Source: Microgenomates group bacterium
GTDB lineage: Bacteria > Patescibacteriota > Microgenomatia > UBA10105 > UBA927
DNA: 41,155 nucleotides
Reading direction: 5' to 3'
NCBI GenBank assembly: GCA_049287205.1
Contig: JBAQFJ010000001.1
Span: 1 to 41,155, forward strand
The position numbers and the translations under genes were made by a program. Below are positions 3-39,811 of this stretch, piece by piece (position 1 is the stretch's first letter; every line of letters starts with the position of its first letter). The notes beneath the pieces are model-generated. The model saw only the letters and a list, made by a program, of their open reading frames with translations. It was not told where the DNA came from and did not search any database.

Positions 3-3000
3 ACAACGGTTGCCTGTACTGTTGGCAAAGTGCAGTGCAATCCAACACGACCAAATGAGTTGCAGACCTGTATTAAACGGGAAGGTGCTTCGAATACTTG
101 GATGACAACATCGTGTCCGAATGGATGCAAGAATGCTGCCTGTGTGACAACAACGTCAGCCACGTGTACTGCAAATGAAGATTCCACACTGACTACCCGT
201 GAATGTACTACGCGGGGCAGAACATATAGGACATTAGCTGATGGGAAAATTTGTTGTCTACGGGTTTCAACCAAAACACCAACACCGTCAACCACTACAA
301 CAAGTGGATCTTTAGCTATCGGCGATACCTGTGTGAAAGGATTTTTTGGTTTAGGCGATACGTGTAAAAAATGTCCAAACGGAGAATATTATGTTGCTGG
401 GCGTTCTGGGTCGGGAGGAACGCTCAAATGTGGTTCTGCTTCTACAACAGCTACCACAGCTTTAACAGGAGTTGCAATTAGTCCAAGTCCGTCTGTGGTG
501 GTTGACCAAGCAGCGTATCAGTCATGTACAGCGGCGTGTGTTGCTACGTATAAACTGGAAAAAGATCTTAATGAAAAGACAAGTTGTATGACTGCATGCA
601 ATACACTGCTAGTTGCAGCGGCAGGTGCAGTGGGGGCAACTGGAACATCCGGTACAACAGGTGCTACCGGTACAACAGGTGCTACCGGTGTAACACCTTC
701 CATTACTCCTTATCCTGTTCCAACACCACCAAACTTCACCGGCGGAGTGCTGCAATGTAGTGCGGGAGGTGGAACAAACGCAAAAGCTGGATCATTCACC
801 TTTGATAATGGATCTATATATAAATGTGATGGAACAACAGGACGATGGTTTAATGTGAGCAACATTGGATGGGGACCAGAAGATGTTCCAGAAAGCGAGC
901 GTCCGTCATGGCTTGTTCCAGGGAGTAATTATTGGGTTGCATACACAACATCCGCGGTGACCGCCCCATCTATATATACGACCGAAGCAAAAAATGCATG
1001 TGTTGTGAATGTTGCCGATGGAAAGGTGTCATATAGTGATGGAGATATTGCTATTGGTCCATATCACACAGACGGAGATAAAGGGAACAGATATCGTTGC
1101 GAAGATGGAAAATGGAAAGCATGCGACGGGTGTCTTCTTACCGTTGTTCCTGAATACATGAAGAGTGATGCAGCGTATCAACAGGAGGTTGAAGCAATAA
1201 GTCTGGCCTATCAAAATTATGCAATAGCACTGAGCGCATGCGGTCAAAATCCAACGCAAGCCTGTGTTGATGCGGCGGCAACAGGATTAAATTTATCAAA
1301 CGATGCGCTTTTGGAAGTGCAAAAACAATACAATCAACAGGCGGCAATTCAAAATACCTATTATCCTGCAATGCAGGCATATGCAACGTGTCTTGCGACT
1401 CCAGGAAAAACAGAGGCCACGTGTGCGGATGAACGAAGAGCAGCAAATGTTACGTATGCAGCAACAGGGTTGGGTGGTGGAGTGTATCAACAGGTTTCAG
1501 CAAATTTTGGGACTGTTGTGTATAACACATTTCTCAATGATTACATTGCTATTAATGCACGAATAGACGTATGCGCCGAGGACAACTCCTATGTATTTTC
1601 TGATGGTGCCACATGTACCGATGCCACACAACAGCTGGCAAATCTGAAAAATGATCCGTTATTTGTGTATTTTGACCAAACAACATCAAATTCAACACTG
1701 GATTTGTTGCTAGCAGATGCAGCGAAGAATGAAGGTATTAGCACGGTGTATGCAAAGTATGCTGTTGTTTCCGATGCGTATACTACTCCAGATAGCGAGT
1801 TGGTAGAGCGATGTGAAACGACTGGTGCGGGAGCGGTATACACAACGTCCTATCAAGGTGAACGAATAAAGACCTGTACAGCAGCAGCTGTCCGTCAAAA
1901 TTTGCTGACCACTGCAACACTTTCCGATGGACTGAAAGAGCAAATTGTTTATGGATATAAGCAAAATTTGCTTTCCCAGTATTCTCAGGCGACCGCATAT
2001 GGAGATCTTGCGGCTGTCTCGACCTTATGCGAACAATTTTCCACCAAAGAAATATGCGCAGATTATGCAAAAGCAGTCAATGTGATTTCCTCGAATTTTA
2101 AAATTACATTCTCCACGGAAGAATTGGCGGCAATGGGCAATATAAACAAAACACTCACTGATACAAAAACATATTCATATTTACTGGATCCGTCACAATG
2201 TGATTTATCAACAGAAGCGATTTGTGCAAAAATCGAAACAAATCCAACTGCTGTATTAAAGACATTGCCGGAAAACCTGCAGGATGCATGGCTCAGCCAG
2301 CAAATTGTTACCACATCGGCGCCTGATATACTCGCGCTCTGCAAACAATTACTGAGTGCTAGCAAATGCAAAGATGAAAAAACTGCCATTACTTCATTAA
2401 CAGCAACATTGCCGCAGGATATGCAAACCGGTCTTGTTGATAACAGGACAACCTATCAGCAAACTATTACCACATTTGAATTGGTGACAGGTGGTGATGA
2501 TGAAGCCATGACAACTGCCTGCAAGAAACAATATCCTAACGCGGCAGACCAAGCGATTCACTGCGTAAATCCTGATTCTTATAGACAAGCATTAGTGTTG
2601 ACATTGCCAGAAGCTGCACAAACACAGGCAGCAGCAGTTATCGAAGAAACCACACGGCAGCCGGATACCCTGTATTATCAAGCGTATCAGCAGTATGTAA
2701 AAGACAATGGTGAGACAACCATAGAAGAGTTTAATGAGTTGAATAATAAGGCATTTGATTCCATGAAAGCAAAATGGGATCTGTATGGCTATACAGAACA
2801 GTATGCTGCAGCATACCAAAAAGGAAATTTTGTTCCATTGCAGGCAAAAGAAGATTATAAAAATAATGTTCCCTGGTATAAAAAATTATATGTAGGAACA
2901 CAAACACTGGGTGACACCTTTGTTTCTCGAACATGGGGAGTTGATGAGGAAGTTGCTGCAGAGCGTGCACGAGGAATATACATGGGGCTCGATATAGAGA

Positions 3001-6000
3001 CAAAACAGAGTTATCTTACAAGCATAGCTGAGACTCCTGCATATAAAACTGCATTGCAACAGGATTCGACATTAACACCGGAAACCTATCTCAAGTCACA
3101 GTTGGCAACAGCAATTGGTTATGAGAATGACTATTTAACAGCTGGGATAATCCGAGTGGATAATAAGGATCAGTTTTATGCACAAGTGATGCGGGGAGAA
3201 CTTACGCCAACGGACACAGCAAAAAATTTAACTGCATCGGAAAAGTCGGCATTGGCAGTATTCAATTTTGCCAACGGGGTAACGGCTGTTTTCGGCGGAA
3301 ATACAACTGGAGCTTCTGAGACATTTGTTCGTGACGCAAATCCCGCAATTGAAGAAGCACAAAATGAATGGACAGCAGACATGATGATTCGCGATATTCA
3401 TTATAATAATCCGACATTATATGTGAATCTGAATTTAGGCGATGAAACAACAAGAAAACAAGTAACGGAAAATTATGCAGCTGCGTTATATATAAAAGAT
3501 CATGCAGAACGAGATGATATTCCAGGGGTAGACACATTATTTGCGTCTGATCCACAGTGGGTAACGCGTGCCGCACTTACCGGAGAAGTTGATTTTACAG
3601 CATTGAAAGAATCTGTTGCAGATGTTGTTACCTATAACGTTGCGAAAGATTTAAACAAAGTCATTACAACGATGGATTCAGGGAATATTACAGAAAAAAC
3701 TGACTATAAAGCCGCTGCAGCCCAAGCAGCACAAGTTGTTGCTGATGCATACCTTAACTCTTTTAGTGCGTCCGATCTTGCTGTCATGGACGAGCAACTG
3801 GCGTTAAAAAAGCCGGATATGAAGCCGGAAGAATATGAAGCATATCGAAAAACACAACTGAAAGCATTGATGGATTCAGAAAATAACAAAGATTATCAAT
3901 TTTTATTTTCCGCAGCAGGATGGGATATCCCAACAACAGAAGAAGTGCTCACCGGTCAAAAAGATGTGGCACGTGATATGCGGGTAATCAGTGAGGAAAA
4001 AGCAAAGTATCCGGTTGCTTATTGGCTGAACCGCCAAGAAAACGGATTGTTGGCAAAAGGGCAATTGATTTTAGATGATCCGGAATCGAATACATGGGAT
4101 AAAGCGCGCGCGGTAGTCATGATGAATGCTAAACCTGTATCGTGGGTGCTTGCGGTGGTGCCAGTTGGGAAATTGGTTGCCAGTGGAGCAAAAATAGCAA
4201 CCGTTCCAATGATGATGAATATCGGATCAACCGCACTTGGCGTGACTATGACTGCGGATAGTCTGGCGCAGGCAATGGACGCGTGTACGTTTAAAGATGA
4301 TATGAATACACGCGCGTGTGTTACCTCATCTCTTATGACAGGGTTTGCCGCGTTTTCGACTGTTCCGGGTATGAAGCAGTTACAACTGGCATCCAATGAG
4401 GCGCTAGCAATGCGCGCTGCTGCAAATGTCACGACAAAAGTGGAAACCATGGTTTTACAGGGTGCGTCAGAAGCGGAAATTTCCGTTGCTTTAAAAACTG
4501 CACAGGCAGCAGCGGATAAAGCAGCAGTAAGAGTACTTACTTCGCAGACATCCGTTGTTTCGAAAGTCGTTGGGAATCAAGTGTATAATCGGGCAACATC
4601 ACTGCTTGGAGGCGCTGCGTTTGGATTACAGGCAGTGGACGCATGTGCGGAAGGACCGAATGTAAATTGTGTACTTACTGCAGGTATGGCTGCCGTGTCT
4701 TTTACCCGTGTGTTTGTTAATCCAAACATCGCCTCAGATGTACAAAAAGGCGTCGGGCAAACCATACACAATGCAGACAAGATTATCAATACGGGTTTTG
4801 CAGCCACTGCATGTTCCGAAGCTGCTGAAGGAAAAGTTCCATGGTCGCAGTGTACGAGTGCACTGTTTATGGCAACGAGTGCATTTCGTGAACCGGGTGC
4901 ACCAACAACAAAAACGGAAACAAATTTTGATGTACGTTCGCAGCAATCGAAAGCACTTAGTGAATTTGAACTTCTTCTTAAATCCAAAGCCGGAGAAGCG
5001 GTAACGTATAACGGAACATCTTATACACCGGAAACGTTTACCGAGGCGGTTCGGACAAAACTGCTTACAGAAGCACGGACACAAGTCACGGTAACAAATC
5101 TGGAAGTAACAAAATTAAATGCGCAAGTTGAGCAGGCGATGAAAAAACTTGCAGGAACACCGGAGCAATGGACTCCCGGAACACGAGAGCTCAAGAAAGC
5201 GCAGGAGCTGTGGAGTGAAATTTCTACAAAAACGAATGCAACATCAGAACAAATTGATGCAGCAGCGCACGCGTTGCTTTCCGCAAAACAAACAGCAACG
5301 TACGAAGCGATGCTATTGAAGCCAAAAAGAACATTTGCCACAGTGGTCAATAAACTTTTTAGAAGAAGTCAGCCAGAACTGGACGCACTTGCCACTGCAC
5401 AAAAAGAATATAAGGAACTGCTTAAAGGAAAAGATCTTAATCCCAATGATCCGGTATATAAGGAAAAAATGCAGGTACTTCTTACAGCGGACACTGCAGT
5501 AACGCGGAAATATGTGTATAACGAGGTGCAACGCACATATGCGACTGAATTGGACGCCAAGAAAAAAGTATTAGCTGATTTAGAACAAAAATATACAGAG
5601 GCGCTTGCGCAAAAGGAATCCAGTCTTGTTGTTGATGATGCGTTGTTAAATTCCGTTGCAGAGCTAGAAACAAACGTATTGGCGGCACGATCTGACGTTG
5701 TTGTGCAACAGGCACGGTTGGAATCTGCAGGCGGATTTTGGAATCGTGTTGGGATTGCTTTAGGTCGGGAAGCTGCGGTGCAAAGCCGTGTGGAAAAGAC
5801 AATTGCAGAATTATATCCAACAGCTGCAAACAAACTCGCAGCTGTTCAACCCACAAAAACAACGCTTGCCGATGCATATTCCAAACTTCTTGACCGCAAC
5901 CCGCTCGTGAAAGAATGGCGCCAGAAGCAATTATCCGTTATTGAAGCAAGGAAAAATGCAGGCGGTGCTGAGACAGTACGACAACGTGTTATTGACCGTG

Positions 6001-9000
6001 TTGCGTCTGCACTGCTCGGGAAATACAGCGGCGAGAGTGTTACTGTTTCCGTACGCGATATTGATGTCTATCGTCAAACGCAGGTAAAAGAAGGGACAAT
6101 CCCAGAAGTGGTTAAAGAACAGCGTATTTCCCAAGCTGAGTTGAAACAAGCCTTGGATACGAATAACACGGTAAAAATGACCAAGGAACAATCCATTCTT
6201 TCACGAACAGAACCTGATGTTGTCAAAGCAACCGCCATTGAACAAAAAGCGCAGGCAGTTCGGGAAGCAGTTGCTGTATATGAAAGTGCACTTCTTGACA
6301 GACCGAAGAAATTGGCTGCAGTAACTGAAGCAATGAAAACATATGAAAAGGCATTGGCTGAAAGCAATATTACGAGTTCGAAAACGACTTCTTCAGTGAA
6401 ATCCCTTACTACAGCACTTTCCGAAAAAGCAATGGCGTACACCAAAGCAGTCACCGAGTATAAACAAACCGCAACACCGGAGAATTTAACAAAAGTACAA
6501 ACTGCAGATATCGCATTTAAAAAAGCGCAAATAGATGTATTTGTTGCAGAAAAACAGGCGTTTGTATATGAGGCGGCAAAAGGGTTGAACCCTGTGGAAC
6601 GGGCAAAGATACTGACTAAAACAGAACTCATGCCTGAGCTGCCGGCCAGTTGGAGTGAACCACAGAAATTAACAGTAGAACTTCGGGTTCGCGCGATGGA
6701 GATGAAAATCAATGAGGTGTGGAAGGCAACCGGAAAACTCAAACAAACCGGGGTATTTGGATGGAAAGCAGCGCAAATTTCTGATGCAGTCAAACTCCTT
6801 TCTGGAAACCGTTCCCTTGCTATTCAAATGACTGGTGGAGGAAAAACATTTACTAACGCGCTTTATATGGATTTGAGCTATGAATTAACCGGACGGCCGG
6901 GAACATATATTGCCAAAGATGCGCAAAGTATTCAGGTGTACAACCAGTTAAAGCCGTTGTTCGGCGAGGATATCTATTATTTCCGGCTGGGAAAAGACAT
7001 CAAAGGCAACCCATTGGATATTGTGCAACAGGAAGCACAAATGCGCAGTGCTAAATTTATTCTTGCTGAACCGTCTGATATCGCGTTTTTGCTTGATACC
7101 ATGAAAAGTCCCGGACTTACCACACAGCAACAGATTGCTTCATTTGAAGCCTACAAAAAAATCTATACTGCAAACAGAACAATTGACGAGTTCCCAGAGT
7201 TTTTGAATTCGAAAAACGAATGGGTGATGTCGTTTACCAGCGATCAGGCAGTGATAGGGTCTACTAGACAAACTGCATTAATGGAACAATTACAGAAAGT
7301 GTTTGTTGAAAAGAATATCCTCACTGAGGGGCTGGTCGGTTCACAGGAGCGGGTGCAGTTAACGGATTTGATTGAAAAAACCATTGTGGTTTCTGATGGA
7401 ACCGTGGTAAAACAGTCGCATTTTACCGAAAAAGGTGTCAAAAGCATGATTGATTCCATGCTTGAAACAAAATTATCTGACGGCAATGTGTTATTTGACG
7501 GCTTGACCGGAACTAGAGAGCAGAAAATTGCAACAGTGTATGAAGTATTTGATGCAATTGCAACGCGTGATCCGGCAAAACTTGCAGCTATTGAAGCAGA
7601 TCCCGTGCTGACAAAGATTTATACAGACGCCACTTTCCTTGGGGACGCGATGAATAAATCGGCAACTATTTTAGTGTCAGAAATTGGAAGTCAGACATTT
7701 GCAACCGGTATCGGATCAAATGGAAATCTGCAGGCGAATGTGAAAGACGGAGATATTATCACAGCATTGTCCAGAAAAATGCTGCAGTCGTGGGTTTGGG
7801 ATACACCACTCACAATAGAAGCGTTAAAAACTGTTTCTGTTAACGGGCAAACAATTAAAACAAATATTTTTGATTTGTATGCGTGGGATATTGCTTTCGG
7901 AAGAGAGGTTGGAGGATTTTCCGGTGTGACTGCAACGCCTGATGCAATACGCAACATCGCAAAAATGGCGGGCTATACCGTTAATGAGGCAGAAATTCTA
8001 GTAGTGAATGCAGCCAACAAAAAAAGAATTTTCGGGGAGCCGGATGCGGCGACCGGTAATTTAACAGGGGGACGGGTGAGTGAGAAAAACTTCGTGAGCC
8101 TGGGGGAACAGGGGGATTTGGTGCAGGCGGTGAAAAAATATGCGGCGATGATGACTGAAGAGCTTGTTAAACAAAACGGTGTTGTTATAAACAAAAGTGA
8201 CAAGCATATTCTTGCAGTGAATGCGAGAGCTTCTAAAGAAGAAATCATGGCGCTTATGGCAAGCGAAAAGAATTTGGGAACGAAACGAAACTATGTCGTG
8301 GCAACAGAGGATGGGAATATTTATGAGGTGAAATTTACCGATGGAAAAGCGCAGTTTGTGGAAATGACCAAAAAATACAGCAACGTTAATATTTCCGCCA
8401 AGGCAACCGGACTGGAACGGATCATGTCTACCGGTATATCGGACCACACAACAGTTATCATCCTTGAAGGACAGTCTATCGGAGGCGATTTTCCGGGAAG
8501 TAAGGAGATTTCATTCCAATCCATTATTGATGCAAGCCGCGCAACAACAGAAATTGTGTATCAGACACATGGTAGAGGCATGCGTACAAACGAAACACTA
8601 CTTTCCGACGGAATGATTACCTTTGGTTCAAAAGAAATAGTCGGAAATTCAGCTGAGTCGATGAAGGAGTTCATCGGCAAAATTGAAATCAATTCGACAG
8701 TTGCACAAAAGAATCTCATGGCAGAGGCAATTCCTGCATGGCTCAATGCACAGGCAAATCTGCCGATGTATGAAGCATACGTGGAATTGATGAATGCTGG
8801 AAAACCAGCTGAGGCGGCAAAAATCTCCACCATGCTTGCCGACATGCAAAAAGTACAGGAAAGCTATGATGCAAACGTGTTCAAAAAAGGAACAGAGTTT
8901 AAGGATTCGGTACAGCAAAAAGTGAATGAACTATCAGCAAAATATAACAGACTTCTTACTGAAAATGCAGACTTTTTTAATCAGCCGGACATGGCAGCGC

Positions 9001-12000
9001 TTAAGAATCGTCTGCTTGCTGATAATGTCGAAGCCTACACGATTTCTATCAAAGAAACTGGTGGAGACGTTGCAAAATTACAACTTGCCGGCGATGGACT
9101 TCGGGGTGCAGCTAGGCGAATATCAGAAAACTTAAGCTTTGACGAAGTGCCGAAGTATGTTGCAGGCGATACTGCAAAAGGGGAAATTTCCGCGAAGCTT
9201 GCAGATGCGCTTAACGGCATAAAAGGTGAACCGATTACCATCACTGATCCGGCGTCAGCTGCACTAAAGGCTGCTGCTATGCAGGCAGAACAGGATCTTG
9301 CGATTTCAGGAGGCACCACAGGAACAAAAGTTGTTAACACAAAGAGCAGTACACAAACAGCAGTAGACATATTAAAAACTATACAAGGACAATCAACAGC
9401 TATACAAACTCCGCAAGACCGTGCATTGGTGATTCAAGGATTATCTCCTGCGCGTGCCAATGTGGCAGCAGCACTTGCTCTATATCAACAGGAATCGGCA
9501 AAAATAACAATAACCCCTATTGATCAAACAACTGACAAAAAATTGTCTGTCGGCGTGAAAGTAGAAGGACTTGCAATAACCAATGCGAATCAGGTTGTGC
9601 TTCGGGTTTTGAAAACTGGAGGAAGAGTTGTGACAACCGTCGGAGAGACAACGTTCGATTTTGCAGACAATACATCTTATTATGTGGTTGCACCTGAAGG
9701 ATATGTAGGAAACACCACAGTTGATGATATTACTACGCGTGCTGGTGGAGTGAAAGTGACTATCGCTTCATCAGTTGAACAACCTGCTGACTCTGCAGTG
9801 ATTGCAAAAGCGCTTCAAGATTTGAATCTTGCAAAAGATGAGGCAAACACGATTGAATATGGGTTGTTTGAAGATGCGCTGCAACGAGTTACAGAACAGG
9901 TTGGGGGAACAGATGAATTTGCACGAAGAACTGCGGCATCTGCACTTATGCAGTATGAATCCGCTGTTTCTGATGTTCTTGCAACAATGACAGATGCACA
10001 GAAACAAAGTCTATCAGACCCTATAGCACTAGATACTAATGCATCAATATTGGCAGCACGGACAGCAGCAGTTACCGCAATTGCTGCATATAAAAATGAT
10101 GCAACATTTGATGCGGAACAAGCGGTAACTCAACTTGCACATCCAATCATGACAACACTGATTGCACTTGCAAAGGCAGAAATATCAACTATTGCATCAG
10201 ATACAACAACCAAAGACACTGTGACCTTTGGCAACGCACCAAAAGCAAAACAGACAAGTGTTGTCGGCGCATTCTTTACAGGCATTTGGAATACATTAAA
10301 TCCTCAGGGTACAGAATGGTTTACCGCAGGCGCGCAGACCGTGCAGGCGTATTGGAATCTGACAAAGAATGCTGTACAGCAAGGCGCGCTTGCAATTCGG
10401 CAAAACGCAGCAACGCGCCGAGTTGCGCGGGCGGAAGAAAAACTAGACGCAGCAAAAGCAGTGAAAAGGATCACTGTTGCTGACAGAACAATAGGACAAG
10501 CAACTCAAACACAGGTGACTGCGGAAAATCGTGCACGCACACAAACAGCCGGATTACTCAGTATTCTTCCATGGAAAAATAAAGCAGCACTCAAAAGTGT
10601 GATGCTTGAAATTGACGGACTGCGAAAAGACATCACCAATCACAAAGCAGTATTAACAACACTTGCAGCGGATCAGAATACAACAATTGATGAATTGCCG
10701 GATGAACTGATAGGACAAGACGGAATTGATGTTTCTCTCCGTCGAGGAGTCATTGCTCTGGATGAGAAGAAGATTGGTGTGCTTCAGGATTCATTAGTGC
10801 CATTGTTGCCAAAACGATCAACATTCAGCCTGTTGTCGGTTATTGATCGAATTTCCACATGGAGAAATTTGACGATTGAAAAACGGCAGGAAAATGCACA
10901 AAAAATATATGATACGGCAGTAGACAAACAAACTGCACTTGCAACACAACAGGCAACTGCTGAAAGCGATCTTACTGTGGTGCAAGAAACACTCACCAAT
11001 GCACTTGCCGCATGGAGCGAAGCTGCACGTCCAGGATTTGCCGGTGGATTTACCGCACTCCGAGAGGCAATTGTTGATCCTGACTATTCTCTTAGAAAAC
11101 AGGTTGACGCCATGGTGCGCGAAGAGAAAAAAATTGACAGAAAGATTGCCAGAGAGAAAAATGCCGGTGATCAGGAACAAAAGCATTATGAGGCAGTGGC
11201 ACAAGAACTCGCACGGCTGAATGAAAAAATTGCTCCTTTTGCTGCAAAGGAAACCGCCGCGAACAACAGCATCAACAAGGCCTATCGCCGAATTAACGAT
11301 CTTGAGAAAAAAATTACAAGAATGTCTGCCGCCACTCAAACAACTGCCATAGAAACACGCATTGCCGGATGGCAAGCACAGATTGCAGTCCAGCAAGCTG
11401 AAATTGCCCGTATGAATGCGGAGAATGCTGAAAATCACAAACAATATACGAAGATTTCCAACCAAAAGAAATCCTTTGAGCAAGAATTGACGGTCGCACT
11501 TCAAGCGGCATCGGAATCAAAAGATGTGATTTTGACCCTGGAAGAACAGAAAAGTGCTCTCGTGGAGCAACGTGAGAACATAGCGATTTCTGATGCACCG
11601 GGATTGTTTGAATCCATCAAACGCATTGCCGGATTTATGGGTGTAGGATCGGCATACAATGCGGACGTTTCATCATGGGCACGGCAACTTGTCGGATATA
11701 CCGCTGGCAATGTATCTGATACCGCTATTGCCGCTGCGTATAAAACAAAACATGCGGTACTTGCCTCAGCCTTGGAAACAGCAAAAAAAGATGTTGTAAA
11801 CGCACAAATCGCATACGACAAGGCCACTATTCGTCAGGAGAATGCGAAACAAAAATTGGCACTCATACAGCAATCACTTGAGGATTATAAAACTGCAAAG
11901 CAAGATAATCCGACAAACATTGCGCTTCCAAATGTCATGAGCAAAAAATGGCTGGAGGAGATTGCAACACTACAAAGCAAGGTTGAGGCAATCGATGAAC

Positions 12001-15000
12001 AGCTCCATGGGCGGACAATGGAGAACGCAGCTGATGCCGCTGAAAAGATCGAAATATATCAAGCTACCTCTCTTCGGACCATCTATACCGACCGGATTGC
12101 CGAACTGGAACGCAATGTTGCCGAGAAGAAGACGATCGATATGTCTGCTGTGGATACATCATATCTGGCATATCTTGAGGTTTCCATGCATAACGCAGAA
12201 AGCGCTGTGGAGATAACAACACATTATACAAACGGAATGAAATTCCTATTGACTCATGCGGAAACTGTACTGGAAAAACGACAAACAGCACTTGATGCAC
12301 TTGGAACATTTGAGGCTCCTGTGCGGGATCTTGTGATGCCTGCAGCCCCAGGATTTCCACAAGTATTGCTGTCTATGGTTGCACAATTGAATCCTGATAT
12401 TAGAACGATGTTGACAGAAGAACGGCGACAAAATGCTGTGTATACCGTGGCGACTGAACTTCTTAAAAAAGGAACCACAGAAGTTATCCAAGTATTGACT
12501 ATTGAAACAAGCGGCCTTGCAAAAACCATTACAAAGCAAGCAACACATGTTTTGCGCGTCAACAGAGGATCTTCAACACAGGAAGAAGAAGTGCAATCGA
12601 TATTTACAGCTGCAAAAGAACAGGCGAGTGCATTTGTAATGCTCTTTACTGCATTTTCCGCTGAACAAAAGAAAGCTATTGTGGTTGCAGTCATTGCCAA
12701 ACAACCAATCGGGGACAGTAAAACAAAACAGCTGCTTGAGACAGAACTTCGGACTGTTGCACATGATGGGCTCTCAGATATGCTCTTTACCTATTGGGTG
12801 TCGAGCATGGCTGAACAATTGCTTCCAGTAGTAAATACAGCAAAGCAAACAGGAGAAATTAAAATTATTCCAGCTGGAACGCAATCCATTGCACCGATTA
12901 CTCCTATTGCTCCAATTGTTTCCTTACCAAAACCTTCTGTGATTACACCAGCAGGTCCTACTACGGAACAAAAAGAGCGTGTGGATATGATCATTCAGGA
13001 ATATATGATCACCGTTCGAAAAGAAGCGGAAACAACAAAGAATTTGGATATGCTTACGTTTATTCCTACCGTTGTTGCAGCGATCAGCCGAGATATTACT
13101 GATGAGGGGCTTCCAGAACTTACGCTTTCACAAATAGAAGCAGTAACAGAGCAACTTACATTGGAGATACAGGCAGGTATTGCAAAACAATCTGCAGTAC
13201 CAGCATCTCCACTGGCACAGCAAAAGGCAACGATAGAAACAGAAATTGCCAGTGTGACGCAAGCGCTCCGTGCGGCAACAACTGTTGTTGAAAACTATAC
13301 AAAAAATAAAGCAATAGTCGATCAGATTAAAAAAGAGCAAGGGCAAATTCAGGGGGTTCAAAAGCAAATCACTGCTGCACTCACCGCAGTAGATGTAGAT
13401 ATACTCGCCGTGGACGATCAACTGCAACAGGCATCTGCGGAATTGAACAGATTATCTGTTCAAATAGCAAATTCATCAATTACTCCGGAAGCACAGGCAA
13501 AACGCGCGCAGGCAGTTGCTGAACAATTAGTGAATACTATGGATGCAGCACAAATACCAATTATTCAACAATGGGTTAAGACACTCAATGCTTCACAGCA
13601 ATATACAGAGGCTTCGATTCGCGAAGTACTGACAAATGATTTGCAATCTCGTTTTGCTGGCATTGAATCACTCGCGGCGGAGCTGTTATCTACGACACCT
13701 GAATTTGCAGGTGACACGGACGGTGTCAACAATTACGCGGCACAAATTGCACAAACACTTTCTGTTCAATGGTTTATCAATCGGTATACAGATTCAAAAT
13801 TCTTTACAGTAAAAACTACTGTTGATCCAACTACGGCGCGAAATAGTGTTGCCATTGGAGATGTCCATGGTGATTGGAATGCATTAGTAAAAATACTCAG
13901 TGGTCAAATGGCAAATGAAAATGGAGAACGTATCAAAAAATCACTTATTGATAGAAATGGCAATTGGATTGGTGGACCGACGGATCAGCTGATACTAACT
14001 GGAGACTTTTTTGACAGAGCCCCGGATGGGATATTAAGTTCCCAGACAGCAGAAAAATTAATGAAATTACAACAACGTGCGGGAATGATGTCTGATGGAA
14101 AAACACCAAAAATTGTGATGCTTTTGGGTAACCACGATGCAAATACAGTTGTTGCATACAATAAAATGAAAGCGCTTCTTCAATCCGGTCAAATGACAGA
14201 TGTGAAGGAGGCTGCCGACCTTGCATCAGTTTTTGCGCCAGTAAAGCCGGGCATTGCCGGTGATGATTTGTTGTATTTGTATAATCATCCGGAAGTGGTT
14301 GATTGGGCAACTCGACTTCCTGCAATGTTTGTACAGGACGGCGCATTGTATATGCATAGTGATAATCTTTCATATCTTTCTCTCGGAAGAACGGTCGATG
14401 AAGTGAATGAAAACGTAGGGAAGATTCTTCAATCTGGGCAAGCCACCATTATTGATGCGGACGGAAATACATTGGAGTTTGACCAAACAAAACTTGCGAA
14501 GAAATTGACTGACAGAGGGAAATTGTATGGTAGTAATGTTGATAAAATATTGAACCAATATGGTGTACAGACCATTGTGCACGGCCACTCGCAGGGAGAA
14601 GCCTCTCAAGATCCACGAGTGACGAATGTTGATGGCGGATTATCGGAATCATATAGCGGGCAAGCAAAAAATCGTGGAAGATTTGCATCACAACAGGTGC
14701 AAGGAAAACAAATAACCACAGTTGCTGTTTCCCCTCTAACATTACCAGTGGCAGATGTTGCAGTTGATCCGATTCCATTATCACCATCGCTTGTTAGTGC
14801 AGCAGCAACCCCAGACATACAGGCGCAACTTGCAACATATAAAACGCAAGTAGAGACGCTTGCAAAAGAAAAAGCGCAGTTATTTCAGACAAAAATAGAG
14901 CAACGTTTTCAATTGGAAGCACTAGAAAAAACGTTACAGGAAATAACTACAAAATTGAGTGGAATAGCTGTGAGTGAATCGACATATAAAACAGCAGTTG

Positions 15001-18000
15001 CATCGCAAAAAGCGCTGAAAAAACAACTTGCGGCAAACAAGAAATTGTTAGATGAGGCTACACAATTGATTGGAGCTCAACAGGAGTTGCGGGCGTATGT
15101 GGCGACCTTGCGTAAAAATAAGTTGGTAAAAATCAAAGACAGTGCAGTTATCTCCTTAGCATCGCTTTCGGACATGAGAGATTTCGTTTCCGCTCTTGGC
15201 GGGTTGGTGGCAGCGTCTATTGAAAAGCTTGTACCGACGACTGCCGATGCAATTTTTACCATAGAGGCGTTAGTAATTGATGCACTTCCTCCCGCAGGGT
15301 TGATCAATAACATTGTTGAAAGTACAACATTCGTGCAAACTATTCAGCAGGCACTGCTTAATGCAGCCGATGCACTGGATACAGAGGCACAGCGTGCAGT
15401 GTTGATTAAACAGCTGCAGGGAATTGAGATTGAAGATATCGATACCTTATCTATTCAAGAACTCCAGGATCTCGTTGACATGTTAAAAGACGATGCAGCG
15501 CAGTTGCAACAGGGGCAAGAGGCACAGATACAGCAGAAGATCCAAGAGGGTATTGATGCATTCAAGCGTATTGCAGCAGATCAAGCGGGGAGGAAAACAC
15601 TCCTTGCTGTGCCGGATGTCAATGTATTTGCGGTAAACGCAGTGGGTCAGTTAAATGTGGAACTTCAAAAGAATGCGCTTCCTGTGTTGTCTCAGTTTCA
15701 AGAGCGAGCTCTTGCACTTGAAATTGTTTCTATCGTGACAACAGTGAAAAAAGAAGAAGCTGTGGGGACAGAGGAGCAATCGTTTTATACCGAAGAAGGG
15801 GGAGATTTGGTGGAAAAGGCGACGAATAGGCGTTATCCCAATATCGAACCGTTTAGGGAAGCGGGGAAAAAGTCACCGTTAGAAGCTCCGGGACCTGTTG
15901 TTTCTGTTGGTACCTATGATCCAAACGAACGTCCGGTTCTTTTTAACTCCAATATGTTTAATTCGCTTCTTGAGAACATGCGTACACATTCGTATACCTA
16001 TGATGCAAACGGTCAACAGGTCTTTTCGAAGGAATTTGGTGCCATGTTGTTTGGTCGAGAAAAAACAGATCCGCAATCAGGCAAAACATATGTTGAAGCT
16101 GAATATTATATTCCATTTCCGGAATCCACATTGGTGGGGACTGCGGGCGATTTGAATATAACTCCTGAAGCATGGGCTGCAGTATCAAAAATCGCGGATG
16201 CAATGGAAAAACACGTTGAACCTGGTCTCATTCCATTGGGATGGATTCATACACATCCGGATCTCGGAACATTTTTGAGTCGGCAAGATCTGTTTATTCA
16301 AGGAAACTATTTTCCTGCAAAACTTGCGGTTGTGATTGATCCGAGAGAACAAAGCGATGCAACGCCTGTGGTCAGTACATTTTCAGAATTTGGCATAGGA
16401 GCAGCACAAAACAATACGCGTTTTAAAAAACATCAAGGATATTACTTGGCATCTCAGACCATGCTACCGCGAGCATTGACAGATGATGCAGTGCAGCATA
16501 TTGCTGAGATTAATACAATCATTGAGGACTTATCTGTTACACCTGCGGGGACAGGGACATCAGAACTTGATCAGGAAATAGCAAAAGAAAAAGCTGTTAT
16601 TGCTGAAAAAGAACGGTTGTATGCAGCAATCGAAGAAGAAGCAAAAGACAATGGTGTGATGCCAAAGGATATTCGAGCACGAGTGCTTGCGTTTACTGAT
16701 TGGTATTCAAAAGAAATGGGAATACCATTTTCAGAACGTAAACAAATGGATTTAGATCAACAGCTGAAAGAACATGCGCAGGCCGGTGTTTTTTCTTGGA
16801 CCAGAACTCAATTTACCGATGCAATTACTGCTATTCGTGCTGGGGGAATAACAATAGAAGATCTCCCTGCAGCTCCTGAGTCAGCAGCAGAAGGGTTTAA
16901 AGTTTTGCAAGCATATCTTGATTACTTACAGACACAATTTATTGGAGAACAGCAACTCACAGCAGATAAAATTGCCGTTTCCACTATTCTTGAACAATTT
17001 AATACTATATTTGCTGCAAAAGGACGGTTTGATGCATCTTTCATCAACGCAACAAAATTACTATTTGTTATTCCAGATTTAGTGAATGCAATTGCAGATG
17101 TACAGGCATTCAGCAAAAAACTGGATACAGAGATTCAGCGGCAAGAAACAGAAGGCCAATCTCAAGAAGCTTGGATGCAAACACTTCAAAAACAATTAGA
17201 AACGCCAGGGGTCGCAACAATACTTATCACACGAAATAACGGAGTTGTTGCACAGACCATTACAACGCCATCATCGTCATATTTTGCTGATGTTCAAGCA
17301 ATATTCTCTGCGTTGTCGACAACAGATACGATTACTGTATTTTTTACTGCCGATGATGGGTCACAATTTGCAGGAACATATCATCTGAATTGGTTCGGGA
17401 GAGTAGTACAAGTTGGAATGAATATTCCATCGTTGTCGTCTGTTACTGACAGTCGACCAGAAGGTATATTTCAACCAGTTCCTGCATATTTAACACCGCA
17501 ACAAAAAGGAGAGATCGAGGTGTTTATAGATAGTATTGAAAATGTAACAAATGAAGCGGTTCGTTCGAGAGAAAATGAACAATATGCACGTGCGTATGCA
17601 CGTTTTGAAGAGCAATTAACAGCTGCTGAAAAAGCTGCAGCACGCTCGCAAGAAGAAATTGATGCACAAGTCGCACGAAGTGCAGCACTTGAAGCAGAAA
17701 AGCTGCAGAATGCACAGACAAAATTTCTTCCTGCGGGTCCAACTGTTCAAGAGCAAATCAGTGCAAGTTTGCTTGCTGAAAATACTGAGGTAGCACAAAT
17801 GCTCCTTGATCAATTGAAAAATATATCACAAGGGAAAACGATCGACATCGTAGATCCCATAAGTGGAGAAGTGTACACCGTGTCAGATTATACAGCTCCA
17901 TTTTTGACGACTGCGATGACACAATCCTATCAAGCAGGAAAAGATAGTGCGCGCGTTGTATCAATGATGCGACCATTTATCGTTGCTCCCCAAAATGTAC

Positions 18001-21000
18001 AACCAATACTACGACCAAATACCGCTTTAGTACGGCAGCAATTACAAAAAGAACTTGCCAAAAAATTATCTGCAGCAATACAAGTGGGGATGACTGCTTA
18101 TACCAACGAACAGGGGATCAAAACAGTTCAGACTATACAGAATGCTATCAAAACATATCTTGAGACACAGATTCCTGTTAGTGCAACCGTTGATGAAACG
18201 ATACGAAATACTGTAATAGAGGAGCAGACGCAAAAGACTTTTACAGCGACACTCGCAAGCATTACGACAATACAAAAGACGAGTATTAACACAATTGACG
18301 ATGCTGTTTTGCGGGCAACCACACTTCCAGAGTTGACAGAGCTTACTAAACAACTTGCAGAAACGAGCGGTATTGTAGAAGCGTTGCAGTTAACCACGTT
18401 GCAGGAATTACTCACCATTGTTGCAGATGATATTGCGGAACAAAGAATAGCAATTGAGACAGTGGAGCAGGAAAAACGGTTGGCAGAAGCGCAGGAAGAA
18501 TTGGGTGCGGCATGGGAACAGCTGATCAGTCAGGGAGAGCAGGGGGATCAGACGACGGTATTGGAAGATGCGTTGGGTGTTGCACAAAACGCTGTCTCCA
18601 TTATTCCGGTTGCGTATGAGAATCTCGTCAACGAATTTGAATTTGGCATTATTGAAACACCGGCAGTCAAAGCGAAAAAAGCAAAACGAACAGCGGCGGT
18701 AAAAAAAGTAAAAACAACACCAGTCGTTGTCACCACTGCGCCAACTACAGAACAAATAGCGACCGCGCAAATAGTACTTGGAGCTTTTTCACCACTCCGT
18801 GATCGTGTCAACAATATATCTAATCGTCTTCCTGCTGTTTCAATAACGGAAATGCAAGACATATTTTATGATCTTACCGCAGCCATACAAGCTGTAGATC
18901 AGGCAGATATGCCGAGTGAAGAAAAACAAAAACTCTTCCCTTCATTTAGTTTGATTCGGAATGAAATAGCGACGATACAGGATCGACTGACCACACTGGA
19001 ACGGGAACAGCAGACGATTCTCTATGAGATTAGTGATGCCGATTATACGTTGTTTGCCTCTTCTACAGTAAGCATTGTTCATCAGTTGGATGTTATCGAA
19101 CTACTACGACAGGAGCTTGTAAGTGTTGTACCATTGAGTATTTCTGCTCCTGTTGTCAGTATTCCTGAGTTGACTGCTGCGGAAGAACAACCTGCGGCAA
19201 CAATTTCTGATGAGTTAGAAACACGTATCAGAGAAACACAAAAGGCAGTTATTCGGAGAATTTTTTCTGAACCGATATCAACAGCAATTGAGGTAAGTCT
19301 CAGAGCACAACTTCAAGACTTGCAGGTACAAGTTCCACAAACATCACCGCAATACACAAGTCTGCAGCAAACGATGGATTTGGTTACACAGGCCGTGCAT
19401 GAACAAACAATAAAAAGTATCGCAAAACAAGTTGCTTCTGTTACAGAAGTGTCGCAAGAACAAGCAAATGTGTTGCTTGCTCAGCTAAGCGCGATTCCTG
19501 AAGGTATTTCTCCAACTGCGGTAGCTGATCTGAAAGTGCAGATTCAAAATAAATTGCCTAAGACACCAACAGCCCCTATTGTCACAAAGTCAAAAACACC
19601 AAAACAGCTTGCTGCGGAAGCGGGTCAGGCAATGAAAAATGTACAAAAATCGGTTGCTGACGGTGCAAATTTCACAATTACTTGGAGAGCAATACAGTCT
19701 GCGTTTACTGCATCAAAAACACTGGCAAACAGCAAAGAATATAGAACAATGCTCATTGATGAAATCGTGAAGATTCAAGATATAAAGATACGGACACGAA
19801 TTATTGACAACTTACACCCCCTATTTAAGGTGCTTAAGATAAATAAGGAATGGAAAGACTTTACCTCGAATCTGCAAAAACGATTGAGTGAACTTCCTGC
19901 AGTAGAGACAAAGCCGATTGCTCCAGCAGTAAAACCTGTTGTAAAAATAACCAAACAGCAGATAACAGAAGCAAATCGGGCAGTAGAGCAAATGAAACTG
20001 GCAATTACACAAGGCGCATCTCCACAACGGGTATATACAGCCATCAAAGAAGTTTTACTTGTATCACGGTTGTTTGCAAATAATCAGGAATATAGGACTC
20101 TTGTCGGAGACGCAATACAGGAGATCCAAGATGAACATACATTACAGACAATTTTGAGTGGTCTGCACTCGTTCTTTATGGTGCAACGAATGGTGGAAGA
20201 AGGGAGTGAGCTTATTGAACGAATACAAGCGAAATTAGATACAATTGTACAAACGCAAGAGAATGAAGAGAAAGAACAGATTGCGCAATTAACTCAAGAT
20301 ACAATCGGTCTCCAAGAGACGAACGAGATAATTGCAGCGCTTGAACAGGAAATTACAAAGACACAACAAGCAATTGATCAAAATATACAAAAGTATGGAG
20401 ATGTATCTGTTATATATCAAAAAACAGTAGAAGATCTAAGTAAGACGGCAACTCCGCTTGAGGGGATATTTACTCTTGAAGCTGTCAATGTAACTGGAGA
20501 CTTTTTTGAATCGAGCGGAGATACGAAGGCGAAGGTGTTACAAAATCTGCAACTTACTAAAGATGAAACTGTCTTGGAACCGATCGGTTCTGGAGCAAAT
20601 AGGGCTGTGTATAGAATTCCTTGGAATGGAAAACAAGCTATATTGAAGATAGCCTCCTTAAAAGAACAAGCGTGGAGTGATATTGTAGAAAAGTCAGTTC
20701 TTGAACAGGATCCCGCGTTTCCAAAAGAATTATCAAAAAATCTTCTTGAGACATATGCACACGGTTCGTTTGATGTCCCATATAAAAATGGTTCACGAGC
20801 GGTCTATTACGAGATTGTTGAATCGTTGACACCGGAGGTAGATTCATCCTCTACAGAAGTAACTGCTTTTGAGCATGAATCCAGTGCATTACGTACATTT
20901 CTTGGAGAGATGAGTGACGTCACTGGTGCAAAAAATTGGGGAGTACGACCAGATGGTACACCAGTGCTTTTGGATATAACGAATTTTAATATGAGTGGGA

Positions 21001-24000
21001 TTGATGATATGTTGAGTTTTTTGAGGGTTCGAATACAAGATATACAAAAAAATGTGCAATTTTTTCAAGCCGCGAAGACGGATCCAATCCTTCAGATATT
21101 ATCCCGTATACATCGTATTGTTTCTGATGATATCAAGTTTAGTGGAGATCTCGCTATTTTGGATGCATCGTTTAAAACAAAAGAGGATTATATTGGGCAG
21201 CTTATTTCTCAAGAAATACAACCACTTTCTATAGATAGAGTGAATTTACATCTTGAAAATCAGCTGACATATAAAAATAGACCGGAAGAGTTTTATAAGA
21301 GTGTGAATGATGCTATTAACAAGCTTACTCGTTTGAAATCTGCAACAACACTGGAAGAACAGATCCGTATCGCATTTACTGATGACATCAAAGTTACGCC
21401 GGCAGGCGTGGAACAACCGGAAACTGTTGAGGTGAAAACACCAGTTGTAGATACAGCTATGGAAACTGTTAATAAAACCATCGTTCTTGCGCAAGGGTGG
21501 ATTGAAAAAATTAGATTAGGAGAGGCTGCGTATGTTGAAAATATTCCTAAATTTATCACGCGGATTCAAGAAGTGGTAGCACCATTACCCGCTGAATCAG
21601 AGGCATATGGTGCGGCACAGAAACTGATTCAAACACTTCAAGAGCTGAAAAAACAACAGACAGAAAAAAAAGAGCAGGCTCCAGAAATTCCAATAGAAAA
21701 AAAACCGTTAGTTGAAGAAATAGCTGTAGTGCCAATTATTGAAACAGTGCTTACTGAGGAAATTGCACCAATGATGACAAAGCGATTGCCTGCGGTTTGG
21801 AAGACAGTACAATCAGCAAAACAGCAGGACATTATTGCCGGACTCCAACAAATAGCAAAAGGCGCAATAGAAGATGAAGTTAATCAGTCATATGTCAGGG
21901 ATATGATTGCTGGAGCTCGGTCAAAGGCATTTGTAACGAATCGGTTATCAGCCGCTTTTGAGGATTATCTTCAACAAACACTTGTGCAAACCGGTCTCAT
22001 GACAGGTGAAATTCCACTTGCACTTCGGACAGATTTGGCAACACTCGTGATTGATCAAATTACACCATTTGTATCGACGACAGTCACTATTTCGAAGCCT
22101 GAATCGACAACGACAAAATCGAAAATGACAACACCAGTCGCAACTGTCAATACAACCGTGGTAAAACAACAAATTGCAGATCAAGTGCGAGAACAGATTG
22201 ACGGTCTACTACCAAATCTTATTGTTGAACGTGCGGAGCGAAATGCAGTTGAGGAATCAATACAACGTCTGCAACAAGCAGGGGGAGACGTGGGAGCAGC
22301 GATTAAGAAAAATAAAGAGGCAATAACCAATGTAACATTGCAAGAATTGCTTCGAACGCATGAATTTACACCGGAATCTGTTCTGTCTTTGCAAGGAGCT
22401 ATATATCAAAAACAATCAAAAGGTGCGCTTTCTGTATCAAATATCGCTTGGCAACTTGATCCGGAACAAAAAACAATTGTCACGATTCATCACACAGACG
22501 GAGTTGTTGATCAGGTAAGTATAAAATCAAGTGCAATGACGCAAAAAACACTGCTTGCCTATATGCGACCCCTCGACAGTGCAGTATTTACCACAGCCGC
22601 CGGAGAAAAAATTGTGATTACGCTGACACGACAAGGCGGAAAGACCATTGACGGAAATATGCAAACACCGGCAGTGTGGCAACAATACAGTTCTGTTTCA
22701 TCACCTACAATGATTGTTTCCGGTTCAACAGCAGATACGCCGGTGTATCGAGTTTCCGCAATGGCTATCGAAACTGGAGATAAAGCAGTTTCCCTTGTTG
22801 GTGATGTAATAAAAACAACGGCAAAAGCAGCAGGTTCAGTCCTTCCTAAAAAAGCCACATCTTTAGTTGGTGATGTGCGCGCCATGATCCCGCAGGATGT
22901 GCCGTATGTTGTACGAAAAGCAGTAGGAGATGCACTTACACAGGAATTTGCGGCACAAAATATTACAACGTATGAAACTGCCGCCGCATTTTTAGCAAAC
23001 GGGACAATCTCACAAACCATGCAAACGACGTTTGCCGCATTACAAGAGCTGACAGCGAATGCAACGGAATGGTATCAGGCAGCAGGTATGGTAATGACAC
23101 ATATGTCTGAATTACAATGGGATCCAAAATTTACCGTTGTAACCCGACAAACAACGGCAAGTATTCTGGCTGGAAAAATTGCTGATGCTACACGTATGCA
23201 TGCATTGGTTGCAGGAAAAACCTCTCTTGCTTCTCAAAGTGAGATTATATTGTTAACCGGCAGAATACTCACGATGTATGCCGCGGGAACAAATGGAATA
23301 AAACTTTCTTCGAAAGAGACAAAAGCAGTAATAAATGCATTACAGCAACCTATAAGTGTATATATCACTGCTGTATTGGAGAATCAAATTGCGACAAGCA
23401 CGCTGTTTCCGGCTGAACAACCAGCGTTACAAAGCGCAGCAACAGAAGAGGTGAAGCAATTGATAGAGGAGGAAACAGTACAGGCACCAGTAAGAGAATT
23501 AACTCCATCAGAAGTGAAAAACCTCCTCCAAACAGCGCCAATGATCGAAGAAATACGAACTGACATTGCATGGAGATTATCAAAGAATGCTGCACTATCG
23601 TCATTAACCACCATGGACGCGCTCCTTGTTGCCAACGGGCAGGTTGAACAACTGATACAAGCATCTATTGGAGAGATTGTGCAGGAAGCATACAGCGATG
23701 CAGGTGTAACCGGTGTGTTTAACCCACAGGAAAAAAATAACCAAGTGATTACCGACGTTGTGCATCAAACAACGCAGCAAGCGATGAGTGTATTAACACG
23801 TCTTATTCGAGGTGACATCGCATATCAAGGTATACAGCCTGCGGTAGAGGAAGCAGTTCGGCAGAGTGAGGAAACAACACGTGCGTATGTCTCATGGAAT
23901 CAGGTAAAAGAATTTTTGGATAAGACAACACATGTATTACAGGAACCGAATACGTATTTCTCCGGAGAAAGCCTTACATATATTGCACAACTTCTTTATA

Positions 24001-34077: not shown

Positions 34078-34079
34078 TA

Positions 34080-35012: not shown

Positions 35013-35013
35013 A

Positions 35014-35529: not shown

Positions 35530-35576
35530 AATGAGGTAAAGATAAATAATAAAATCAATACACTATCCCTATGTTT

Positions 35577-35605
35577 ATAATGCTGATAAATAATGAAATT
35601 GTCAA
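35577..35605 (-). promoter_or_regulatory. Candidate sigma70-type internal promoter in the only sizeable intergenic gap of the operon
   Basis: On the minus strand there is a perfect -35 TTGACA (35605-35600), a 17-nt spacer, and then CATTAT (35582-35577; 4/6 to TATAAT). TATAAA lies 3 nt further downstream. This sits in the 116-bp AT-rich gap 35530-35645. Confidence 0.3.
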
Positions 35606-35645
35606 GAGAAAAAATACCCTGTTGGAACAAGAAAATATGTTGTAT

Positions 35646-37973: not shown

Positions 37974-37974
37974 A

Positions 37975-39810: not shown

Positions 39811-39811
39811 A

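Follow-up and report, generated by a model that had tools for sequence, protein, structure and literature searches.

An ATPase module within a giant open reading frame

The window, that is, the whole 41,155-nucleotide stretch analysed here (contig JBAQFJ010000001.1 of a Microgenomates group bacterium), carries a giant open reading frame (ORF) at 30..32003 on the + strand, which encodes a 10,657-residue membrane protein with mixed enzyme domains. The ORF is open at the 5' edge of the window; no stop codon is found in its frame upstream of nt 30, and the true N-terminus lies beyond the window. The subject of this analysis is an ATPase module of the giant protein that resembles the motor of SecA. 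A preliminary description, made from the nucleotide letters, had read nt 6780-8600 (aa 2251-2857) as a SecA-type motor embedded in a giant protein, and the strings on which it relied (AIQMTGGGKT, ELTGRPGTYIA, KPLF, a DE box, GGDF and HGRGMRT) are all in the frame of the giant ORF. The embedding is likewise borne out: the module has two lobes and starts at least 2,241 aa from the N-terminus. Its features, all on the + strand, are given below with their SecA counterparts, in terms of nucleotide-binding domains 1 and 2 (NBD1, NBD2) and the preprotein cross-linking domain (PPXD).

6753..8729 (+): whole SecA-like ATPase module, aa 2242-2900, comprising NBD1 with its PPXD-like insert, then NBD2, then the first post-motif-VI helix
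6753..6776 (+): VFGWKAAQ, just before Walker A; pairs with SecA VFGMRHFDVQ
6819..6851 (+): motif I (Walker A), AIQMTGGGKTF (K2272, T2273); SecA AEMRTGEGKTL
6882..6926 (+): motif Ia-like strand, ELTGRPGTYIAKDAQ; SecA ALTGKGVHVVTVNDYLA
7053..7103 (+): motif Ib region, KFILAEPSDIAFLLDTM; aligned with SecA DITYGTNNEYGFDYLRDNM
7176..7235 (+): motif II (Walker B) and exit strand, RTIDEFPEFLNSKNEWVMSF (D2386, E2387); placed by the HH alignment to SecA
7236..7838 (+): NBD1 insert, about 200 aa long, in the place that the PPXD has in SecA; mostly helical in a low-confidence model
7383..7505 (+): PPXD-like core, with hairpin IVVSDGTVVKQSHF and helix TEKGVKSMIDSML, then LFDG; the SecA counterpart ends in LYSP
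7839..7943 (+): return strand VNGQTIKTNIFDLY and motif III, GFSGVTATPD; SecA ENQTLASITFQNYFRLY..GMTGTADTE
7944..8450 (+): end of NBD1 and first half of NBD2, with GGRVSEKNFVSLG, NKSDKHILAVNA and YVVATEDG plus a beta-hairpin; residue-level match to SecA uncertain
8451..8492 (+): motif V-like TVIILEGQSIGGDF; G-x-D retained, Thr and Arg of SecA TIATNMAGRGTDI replaced
8562..8585 (+): motif VI, QTHGRGMR (R2849, R2852), with the strand SIIDASR before it; SecA QLRGRSGR
8595..8729 (+): post-motif-VI segment, TLLSDGMITFGSKEI ... STVAQKNLMAEA; SecA SMEDALMRIFASDRV ... ANAQRKVESR, where the helical scaffold begins

The motifs follow the order canonical for superfamily 2 (SF2) proteins, I-Ia-II-III-V-VI, distributed over two lobes, and the module is very probably an SF2-type two-lobed P-loop ATPase. 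Walker A (AIQMTGGGKT) occupies aa 2264-2273 (nt 6819-6848); ELTGRPGTYIA begins at aa 2285 (nt 6882) and KPLF at aa 2308 (nt 6951). The Walker B sequence IDEF is found at aa 2385-2388 (nt 7182-7193), and its acidic pair is the same in each of the four sequences in which the site is covered. FILAEPSD (aa 2343-2350), suggested as an alternative Walker B by one segment match, was rejected, as the family conserves IDEF but not the acidic pair of this string. In the second lobe GGDF begins at aa 2818 (nt 8481) and HGRGMRT at aa 2847 (nt 8568).

The spacing of the motifs is close to that of SecA. GKT and DE are separated by 114 aa in the module and by 101 in SecA, and DE and motif III by about 248 aa compared with about 181; in ordinary SF2 helicases the latter distance is about 30 aa. 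Since the insert, of roughly 245 aa in all, falls between Walker B and motif III, as it does in SecA, it is assigned to the PPXD site, where its size also fits. This differs from the preliminary description, which had placed the long region between the two lobes and had seen no obvious match to the PPXD in it; the region lies instead inside lobe 1, and contains a weak but statistically supported match to the PPXD core (see below).

Similarity to SecA

In a single BLASTP comparison, the module matches E. coli SecA with E=0.006, and the alignment is in register from VFGWKAAQ/VFGMRHFDVQ through Walker A, (A/E)LTG(K/R) and (R/K)PLF and on into the PPXD. For the profile comparisons, a SecA profile of 122 sequences was used (120 canonical SecAs, E. 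coli SecA and the C-terminal module of a relative, P0003, described below), against which a profile of seven family members was aligned with hhalign. The best local match (score 30.7, P=0.016, probability 3%) pairs family positions 232-264 with SecA 270-303, which comprises the hairpin of the PPXD together with the (L/F)TExG helix; here the residues IVVSDGTVVKQSHFTEKGVKSMIDSML...LFDG of the module face the SecA stretch ending in LYSP. The score exceeds those of all 60 column shuffles of the whole alignment (mean 19.2, sd 3.1, maximum 28.9). In an AlphaFold2 (AF2) model that is otherwise poor, the residues of the hairpin-helix match are predicted as strand-strand-helix with a per-residue confidence (pLDDT) of 56-83.

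At a permissive threshold, a maximum-accuracy (MAC) alignment is collinear over 509 columns, covering SecA 69-637 at about 21% identity. It includes Walker A, the LTG strand and the hairpin-helix, and pairs SDIAFLLDTM with YGFDYLRDNM, IDEF...NEWVMSF with VDEV...TPLIISG, NGQTIKTNIFDLY..GFSGVTATPD with ENQTLASITFQNY..LAGMTGTADTE, QTHGRGMR with QLRGRSGR, and TLLSDGMITFGSKEI with SMEDALMRIFASDRV. Walker A and Walker B of the module align to SecA 95-114 and 207-212, respectively, and motif VI to 570-580.

The family alignment was also cut into nine 75-aa segments, each searched independently against the SecA profile. Four of the nine have their best match at the expected SecA position:

Walker A: SecA 95-114, P 0.0065
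PPXD: SecA 270-303, P 7e-4
Motif III: SecA 385-396, P 0.011
Motif VI: SecA 570-605, P 0.0016

All nine reversed controls gave P>=0.084, and segments 451-525 and 526-600 have no match in the correct place. A statistic for the collinear chain of matches reaches 49.5, compared with 5.8+-3.8 (maximum 16.1) for 40 within-segment shuffles. Parts of the module compared with SecA on their own gave the following scores.

Insert only: score 30.6, null 16.8+-2.7, reached by 0/120 shuffles
Hairpin-helix sub-segment: score 30.0, null 13.8+-2.8, 0/120
Motif VI alone, which is generic: score 26.3, null 11.1+-1.9, 0/120
Post-motif-VI stretch: score 14.4, null 14.3, 56/120

The chain statistic ranges from 10 to 38 (median about 23) against 13 single SecAs, and in 11 of these the PPXD segment has its best match at SecA 264-290. 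Of five E. coli SF2 helicases used as controls, four are near background (RhlE 6.9, DinG 8.8, RapA 4.1, HrpB 10.8); UvrB reaches 22, from Walker A/Ia and motif VI only. We therefore take the similarity to SecA to be real but at the detection limit, being significant only as a collinear profile-profile match. The module is probably a descendant of a SecA-type motor, with the arrangement NBD1, PPXD-like insert and NBD2.

Relatives and conservation

An exhaustive phmmer scan of 1.84 billion protein cluster representatives found six relatives (P0001-P0006). Five of these are fragments, and the sixth, P0003, is itself a giant protein of 7,844 aa; its residues 1526-2116 align with the module over its entire length, with 25% identity. 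A single-sequence genome scan and a viral contig scan found no relatives, and a word-indexed homologue search gave no match with either the sequence or the alignment as query. Further relatives came from pattern-based scans combined with contig look-ups. A single relative is taxonomically labelled, and belongs to the metagenome-assembled genome (MAG) of an ultra-small Patescibacteria bacterium: contig L003 comes from a MAG labelled Patescibacteria group bacterium (GCA_034718535.1), which is also the source of P0001.

The motifs are conserved across the family, as Walker A ((T/S)GGGKT or SGGKT), the acidic pair of (I/M)DE(F/I/A)P, G(M/V)TATP(D/E), ILEG(Q/K)SIGGDFP and Q(T/L)xGRGxR. The motifs (GGKT, DE, G(M/V)TATP, ILEGxSIGGDF and QxxGRGxR) are thus not chance strings, being family-conserved and in SF2 order. 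The VFGWKAAQ stretch has counterparts in P0003 (VFSFRDNQ) and in the pseudogene of contig L007 (VFSFRDVQ; see below). Loss of catalytic residues in orthologues, raised at the outset as a sign against a SecA-type motor, is not seen in L002, P0001/P0006 and P0002, where Walker A, Walker B and motifs III and VI are preserved, as they are in the window. The internal copy of P0003 is degenerate at motifs V and VI (GIEGVN, SRSNR).

An orthologue is on a 12.8-kb metagenome contig (L002, 1-12823), with an ORF that is 52.6% identical to the giant protein over aa 1815-3074; over the module alone the identity is 65.5%. By region, the identity is 39% in the upstream coiled-coil-like part, 74% in NBD1, 64% in the insert, 65% over the end of NBD1 plus NBD2, and 49% downstream. 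Because the module is 64-74% identical to L002 and its flanks 39-49%, it appears as the most constrained part of the stretch common to the two proteins. The intact Walker A, Walker B and motifs III and VI, together with this elevated conservation, argue for a predicted active ATPase in the protein of the window. The L002 ORF ends about 2,090 aa past the last similar residue, with no similarity to the window protein beyond aa 3074; judged by their sequences, the two giant proteins have the N-terminal third including the motor in common and are completely different downstream.

P0003 carries two SecA-type modules, the internal one (1526-2116), which has no Pfam match, and a C-terminal one (residues ~7100-7844) that Pfam detects as SecA_DEAD (6.4e-26) and P-loop_SecA (1e-6), with weak SecA_PP_bind and SecA_SW. 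The window protein has no counterpart of this C-terminal module. Since P0003 has a Pfam-positive SecA module as well, SecA modules do occur in this lineage of proteins.

P0002 sits on L007 and L008, contigs of independent ENA assemblies (ERZ2470813 and ERZ1300416). The homologous locus, at 7300-9900 in L007 and also in L008, is broken in every frame by stops and frameshifts, which run through NBD1 and the insert, so that VFSFRDVQ, MTGGGKS and VRDGDIITALSR fall in separate frames; the NBD2 part, corresponding to P0002, is open. As the breaks are identical in two independent assemblies, the locus looks like a genuine decaying pseudogene. An alternative genetic code for the fragmented genes was rejected, all three stop codons being frequent in every frame. 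In P0004 (204 aa), NBD2 ends after VIILEGK and is followed by sequence with an S-x-x-K motif (ASLIKLP); the tail suggests a domain like those of beta-lactamases and penicillin-binding proteins, and P0004 is possibly a recombined remnant.

Other domains of the giant protein and neighbouring genes

Beyond the module, Pfam detects the following domains in the giant protein.

13848-14591 (+): metallophosphatase, ~aa 4607-4854, with GDVHGD and GDFFDR
16200-16310 (+): JAB/MPN domain, ~aa 5391-5427, with HTHPD
24693-25142 (+): LytR-CpsA-Psr domain, ~aa 8222-8371
25746-26354 (+): SGNH/GDSL hydrolase, ~aa 8573-8775
29313-29498 (+): GNAT domain, ~aa 9762-9823, a weak match

The polypeptide thus combines domains expected to be intracellular with others expected to be extracellular. 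No nucleic-acid-binding domain was found in a Pfam-level domain scan of the protein. A hydropathy scan places hydrophobic segments at ~aa 1359-1391, 1545-1563, 8035-8062 and 10523-10655. The N-terminal layout is common to the giant protein and P0003: a Cys-rich region (aa 52-481 and 139-486, respectively) and a hydrophobic Ala/Gly-rich region (aa 1390-1913 and 669-1194) are found in both, with the module next. The comparison suggests that the ORF in the window lacks some 90-140 N-terminal residues, including a signal-anchor.

Two further stretches of the protein show motifs of interest. The first, at aa 6849-6875 (20574-20654, +), has a protein-kinase-like glycine loop followed by a lysine, LEPIGSGANRAVYRI ... 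QAILKIA, as read from the sequence alone; Pfam has no match to this stretch, and P0003 contains similar ones (KPIGHGQGKNAYRL...ILKVAKG). The second, at aa 9332-9636 (28023-28937, +), contains a Walker-A-like EAGTGKSY and then IVGEHHIR ... VVVVEFDS ... VVVGASHA, which recall the TraB/GumN/ChaN (Tiki-like) superfamily; Pfam gives weak DUF matches only.

Downstream of the giant ORF lie three genes on the opposite strand:

32017-39822 (-): three genes, coding for a 747-aa Wzy_C/O-antigen-ligase-like membrane protein, a 794-aa product that matches no family, and a 615-aa NPCBM-domain protein; the ORFs of the latter two overlap by ~55 nt

The theme of the genes around the giant ORF is cell envelope and glycan. 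The window contains no tRNA, no canonical secA and no secY, secE or secG.

A proposed working of the module

We propose, at a probability of about 0.4, that aa 2242-2900 form a highly diverged, SecA-derived, membrane-tethered motor that clamps polypeptide, likely for exporting the giant protein itself. The module would be on the cytoplasmic side of the membrane, because an ATPase must be cytoplasmic. The tether would be provided by the giant protein's own hydrophobic segments, in place of the lipid- and SecB-binding tail of SecA, with the segments before the module and a helical stretch of ~600 aa holding it at the membrane. ATP would be bound between the lobes by K2272/T2273, D2386/E2387 and R2849/R2852, and the opening and closing of the lobes would shift the PPXD-like insert, allowing it to clamp an unfolded polypeptide.

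The likeliest client would be the extracytoplasmic stretch of the giant protein past the anchor at aa 8035-8062, which includes the LytR-CpsA-Psr and SGNH domains; partner exoproteins may be alternative clients, and passage would be via SecYEG or a related channel. LytR-CpsA-Psr enzymes work on the outer face of the membrane, and the segment after aa 8035-8062 would therefore have to be exported once ~6,000 cytoplasmic residues are already synthesised. A SecA-like clamp and motor, tethered in cis and serving that segment or partner exoproteins, seems to us the most economical reading; we infer in it the ATPase activity, the cytoplasmic location and topology, a polypeptide rather than a nucleic-acid substrate, and any link to Sec.

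A bolder version is doubtful: that the module is a dedicated cis-tethered motor exporting internal segments of the giant protein (at least about 1,000 aa) independently of the housekeeping SecA, and that it also represents a SecA paralogue family of its own, deeply diverged, restricted to giant proteins of Patescibacteria-like bacteria and paired, in P0003, with a more canonical module.

Evidence against the proposal and alternative explanations

Several results weigh against a SecA-derived motor. Searches of the module in Pfam, NCBIfam, PHROGs and PADLOC found nothing relevant, even at E<=10; at this threshold SecA_DEAD (PF07517), P-loop_SecA (PF21090) and the NCBIfam SecA models are absent from the window segment and from the seven family members, with the C-terminal module of P0003 (6.4e-26) as the positive control for Pfam detection. 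The family profile is not particularly similar to this SecA module of P0003. Searches of PDB sequences, with the single sequence (phmmer) and with two family profiles, found no SecA and no helicase. A HMMER SecA profile does not match the whole giant protein, and SecA sub-profiles run against it as a single sequence give no significant matches: the top match of the NBD1 sub-profile is in the correct place (aa 2248-2270), while that of the PPXD sub-profile is elsewhere, the correct place (aa 2461-2490) coming second. PF01043 does not match the insert, which is without SecA similarity outside the hairpin-helix core, and the probability reported by HH is just 3-34%.

Other points concern the parts of SecA that are missing or changed. 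The sub-profile of the helical scaffold and helical wing domains (HSD/HWD) finds nothing in the giant protein, and SecA_SW (PF07516) has no match. The HH alignment stops at SecA ~674; taken by itself, the post-motif-VI stretch scores as the null does and gives no independent support for SecA. The wing domain, the two-helix finger, the C-terminal (zinc-binding) tail and the scaffold past its first turns are not detected. Docking to SecY cannot therefore be inferred, the two-helix finger, wing and tail being undetected. The module thus appears to have neither wing domain nor C-terminal tail and little of the SecA scaffold; of the equivalents of PPXD, HWD and HSD sought for it, a PPXD-like hairpin-helix gives a match but a wing and a full scaffold domain were not found. 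In motif V, the Arg and Thr of SecA are replaced (IGGDF compared with GRGTD). The proposed topology depends on a hydropathy scan that is crude.

Structure prediction adds little: AF2 gives a pLDDT of 34 for the single sequence, and a pLDDT of 50 with a predicted TM-score (pTM) of 0.31 for the seven-sequence alignment, a model too poor for superposition on SecA. Foldseek with the latter model finds nothing in the PDB at E<1e-3, and no SecA among the top 50; the top matches, which are non-significant (E 0.014-0.5, TM about 0.1), are MDA5, Hef, RIG-I, Dicer, Snf2 and UvrB. Given the poor model, this outcome would count neither for nor against SecA.

A serious, if unlikely, rival is that the module derives from SecA and retains the ATPase core and clamp-like insert but has been repurposed, so that it translocates nothing. 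It would act instead as an ATP-dependent conformational switch, as a chaperone or unfoldase, or as a factor in assembly, its would-be targets being the very long helical stretch of the giant protein in the cytoplasm and the metallophosphatase and JAB domains. The evidence for SecA identity (BLASTP, profile-profile, segment, chain and insert tests) serves this explanation equally well. The parts that interact with SecY (two-helix finger, scaffold and wing) are undetectable, motif V is altered, and P0003 fits a paralogue with another job, because its degenerate internal copy (GIEGVN, SRSNR) coexists with a far more canonical SecA module. However, the best-conserved SecA-like feature is the PPXD-like hairpin-helix, the substrate-clamp part of SecA, and the large extracytoplasmic enzyme domains of the giant protein need export. 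It is very unlikely that the module is a relic without activity, in which a SecA-like domain is decaying and is retained solely as a structural spacer. The loss of the motif V Arg and Thr, the degenerate motifs V and VI of the P0003 internal copy, the pseudogene found in two independent assemblies and the extreme rarity of the family (six representative clusters among 1.84 billion) are all consistent with decay; against this stand the intact Walker A, Walker B and motifs III and VI in the window, L002, P0001/P0006 and P0002, and the high conservation of the module, which is the most conserved part in common with L002 (74% in NBD1, 39% upstream).

The affinity to SecA could, alternatively, be illusory, the module being a generic SF2 helicase or translocase-type ATPase that is unrelated to SecA, has a lineage-specific insert and acts on nucleic acid; its likeness to SecA would then reflect SF2 motifs and chance. 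Walker A, motif III (MTATPE, as in many DNA helicases) and motif VI (QxxGRxxR) are indeed generic, UvrB aligns over the Walker A-Ia stretch about equally well as SecA, Pfam has no SecA match, and the top Foldseek matches, though non-significant, are SF2 helicases with inserted domains. We nevertheless consider this explanation improbable. The top profile match is to the PPXD, a part found only in SecA, and at a collinear position; the insert separates motif II from motif III, as it does in SecA, unlike in UvrB or RIG-I, and the strands flanking it match the stem in SecA. The insert of UvrB is between Ia and II, and that of RIG-I-like helicases is within or after lobe 2. Furthermore, four of five helicase controls are near background, and no nucleic-acid-binding domain is seen in the giant protein. 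The specific affinity to SecA claimed in the preliminary description is therefore upheld in part: the PPXD hairpin-helix as top profile match and the low helicase controls speak for it, but no curated SecA model matches and the Foldseek tops are helicases.

Comparison with known systems

The idea of a SecA motor encoded in cis is not new, having been proposed earlier for giant proteins of Omnitrophota and Actinobacteria. Most full-length giant genes are reported to encode divergent SecA DEAD and preprotein-binding domains, with no scaffold or wing; the SecA domains form a long-branched clade apart from the housekeeping SecA of the same genomes, and export of the giant protein or of partners has already been proposed as their role (West-Roberts et al., bioRxiv 10.1101/2023.11.21.568195). 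No such proteins are described there in Patescibacteria or the candidate phyla radiation (CPR). The module of the window is similar in combining a SecA motor with a preprotein-binding region, without wing and scaffold, inside a protein of several thousand residues, and the host protein is similar in its transmembrane segments, cell-envelope-active enzymes, and phosphatase and acetyltransferase-type domains; very long branches are a further likeness. The module differs in being unseen by any HMMER-level model, whereas the modules of West-Roberts et al. were detected by Pfam, which was their criterion; in the only labelled relative being a Patescibacteria MAG; in size (about 10.7 kaa, below their focus of 30 kaa); in the position of the module, which lies within the first quarter of the protein and not close to its C-terminus; and in having a relative, P0003, that holds a diverged module together with a Pfam-positive one. 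A PF07517 architecture cluster has also been reported among long Omnitrophota proteins (2026 preprint, bioRxiv 10.64898/2026.06.07.730766).

Compared with canonical SecA (PF07517, PF01043, PF21090, PF07516; E. coli b0098), the elements occur in the same order: VFGxR..Q, Walker A, the LTGxG strand, DE with its exit strand, the insert with the hairpin and (L/F)TExG helix, the return strand, a GMTGTA-like motif III, and NBD2 with QxxGRxxR followed by an LxDxxMxxFGS-like stretch. Unlike SecA, which is free-standing and soluble or peripheral, the module is an internal segment of a polytopic giant protein. With SF2 helicases that have inserts (UvrB; RIG-I/MDA5/Hef) it has in common the two RecA-like lobes and motifs I, II, III and VI; in contrast, there is no match outside these generic motifs, and the window protein has no nucleic-acid-binding accessory domains. 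Helicase-related domains resembling SecA are mentioned, without further detail, in Amoebophilus effectors (Zhang et al. 2012, PMC3482391). These are alike in the recruitment of a SecA-related ATPase domain into large multidomain proteins of secreted or effector type, and differ in lineage and architecture, the likeness being one of description only. By architecture, the module of the window belongs to the SecA-like modules of giant proteins, as a rarer and more diverged member with a very small orphan family of its own.

As to how bacterial proteins of 10,000 to 85,000 residues could be inserted and exported, no mechanistic clue other than built-in SecA-like motors has yet been proposed. The module described here indicates that such motors also exist in a much more diverged form, unseen by domain databases, and surveys based on Pfam would therefore undercount them. 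The PPXD-like hairpin-helix and the intact catalytic motifs delimit a compact fragment of ~670 aa that could be expressed to probe polypeptide handling, and in P0003, where two SecA-type modules coexist, a copy close to the canonical form can be compared naturally with a diverged one inside a single protein.

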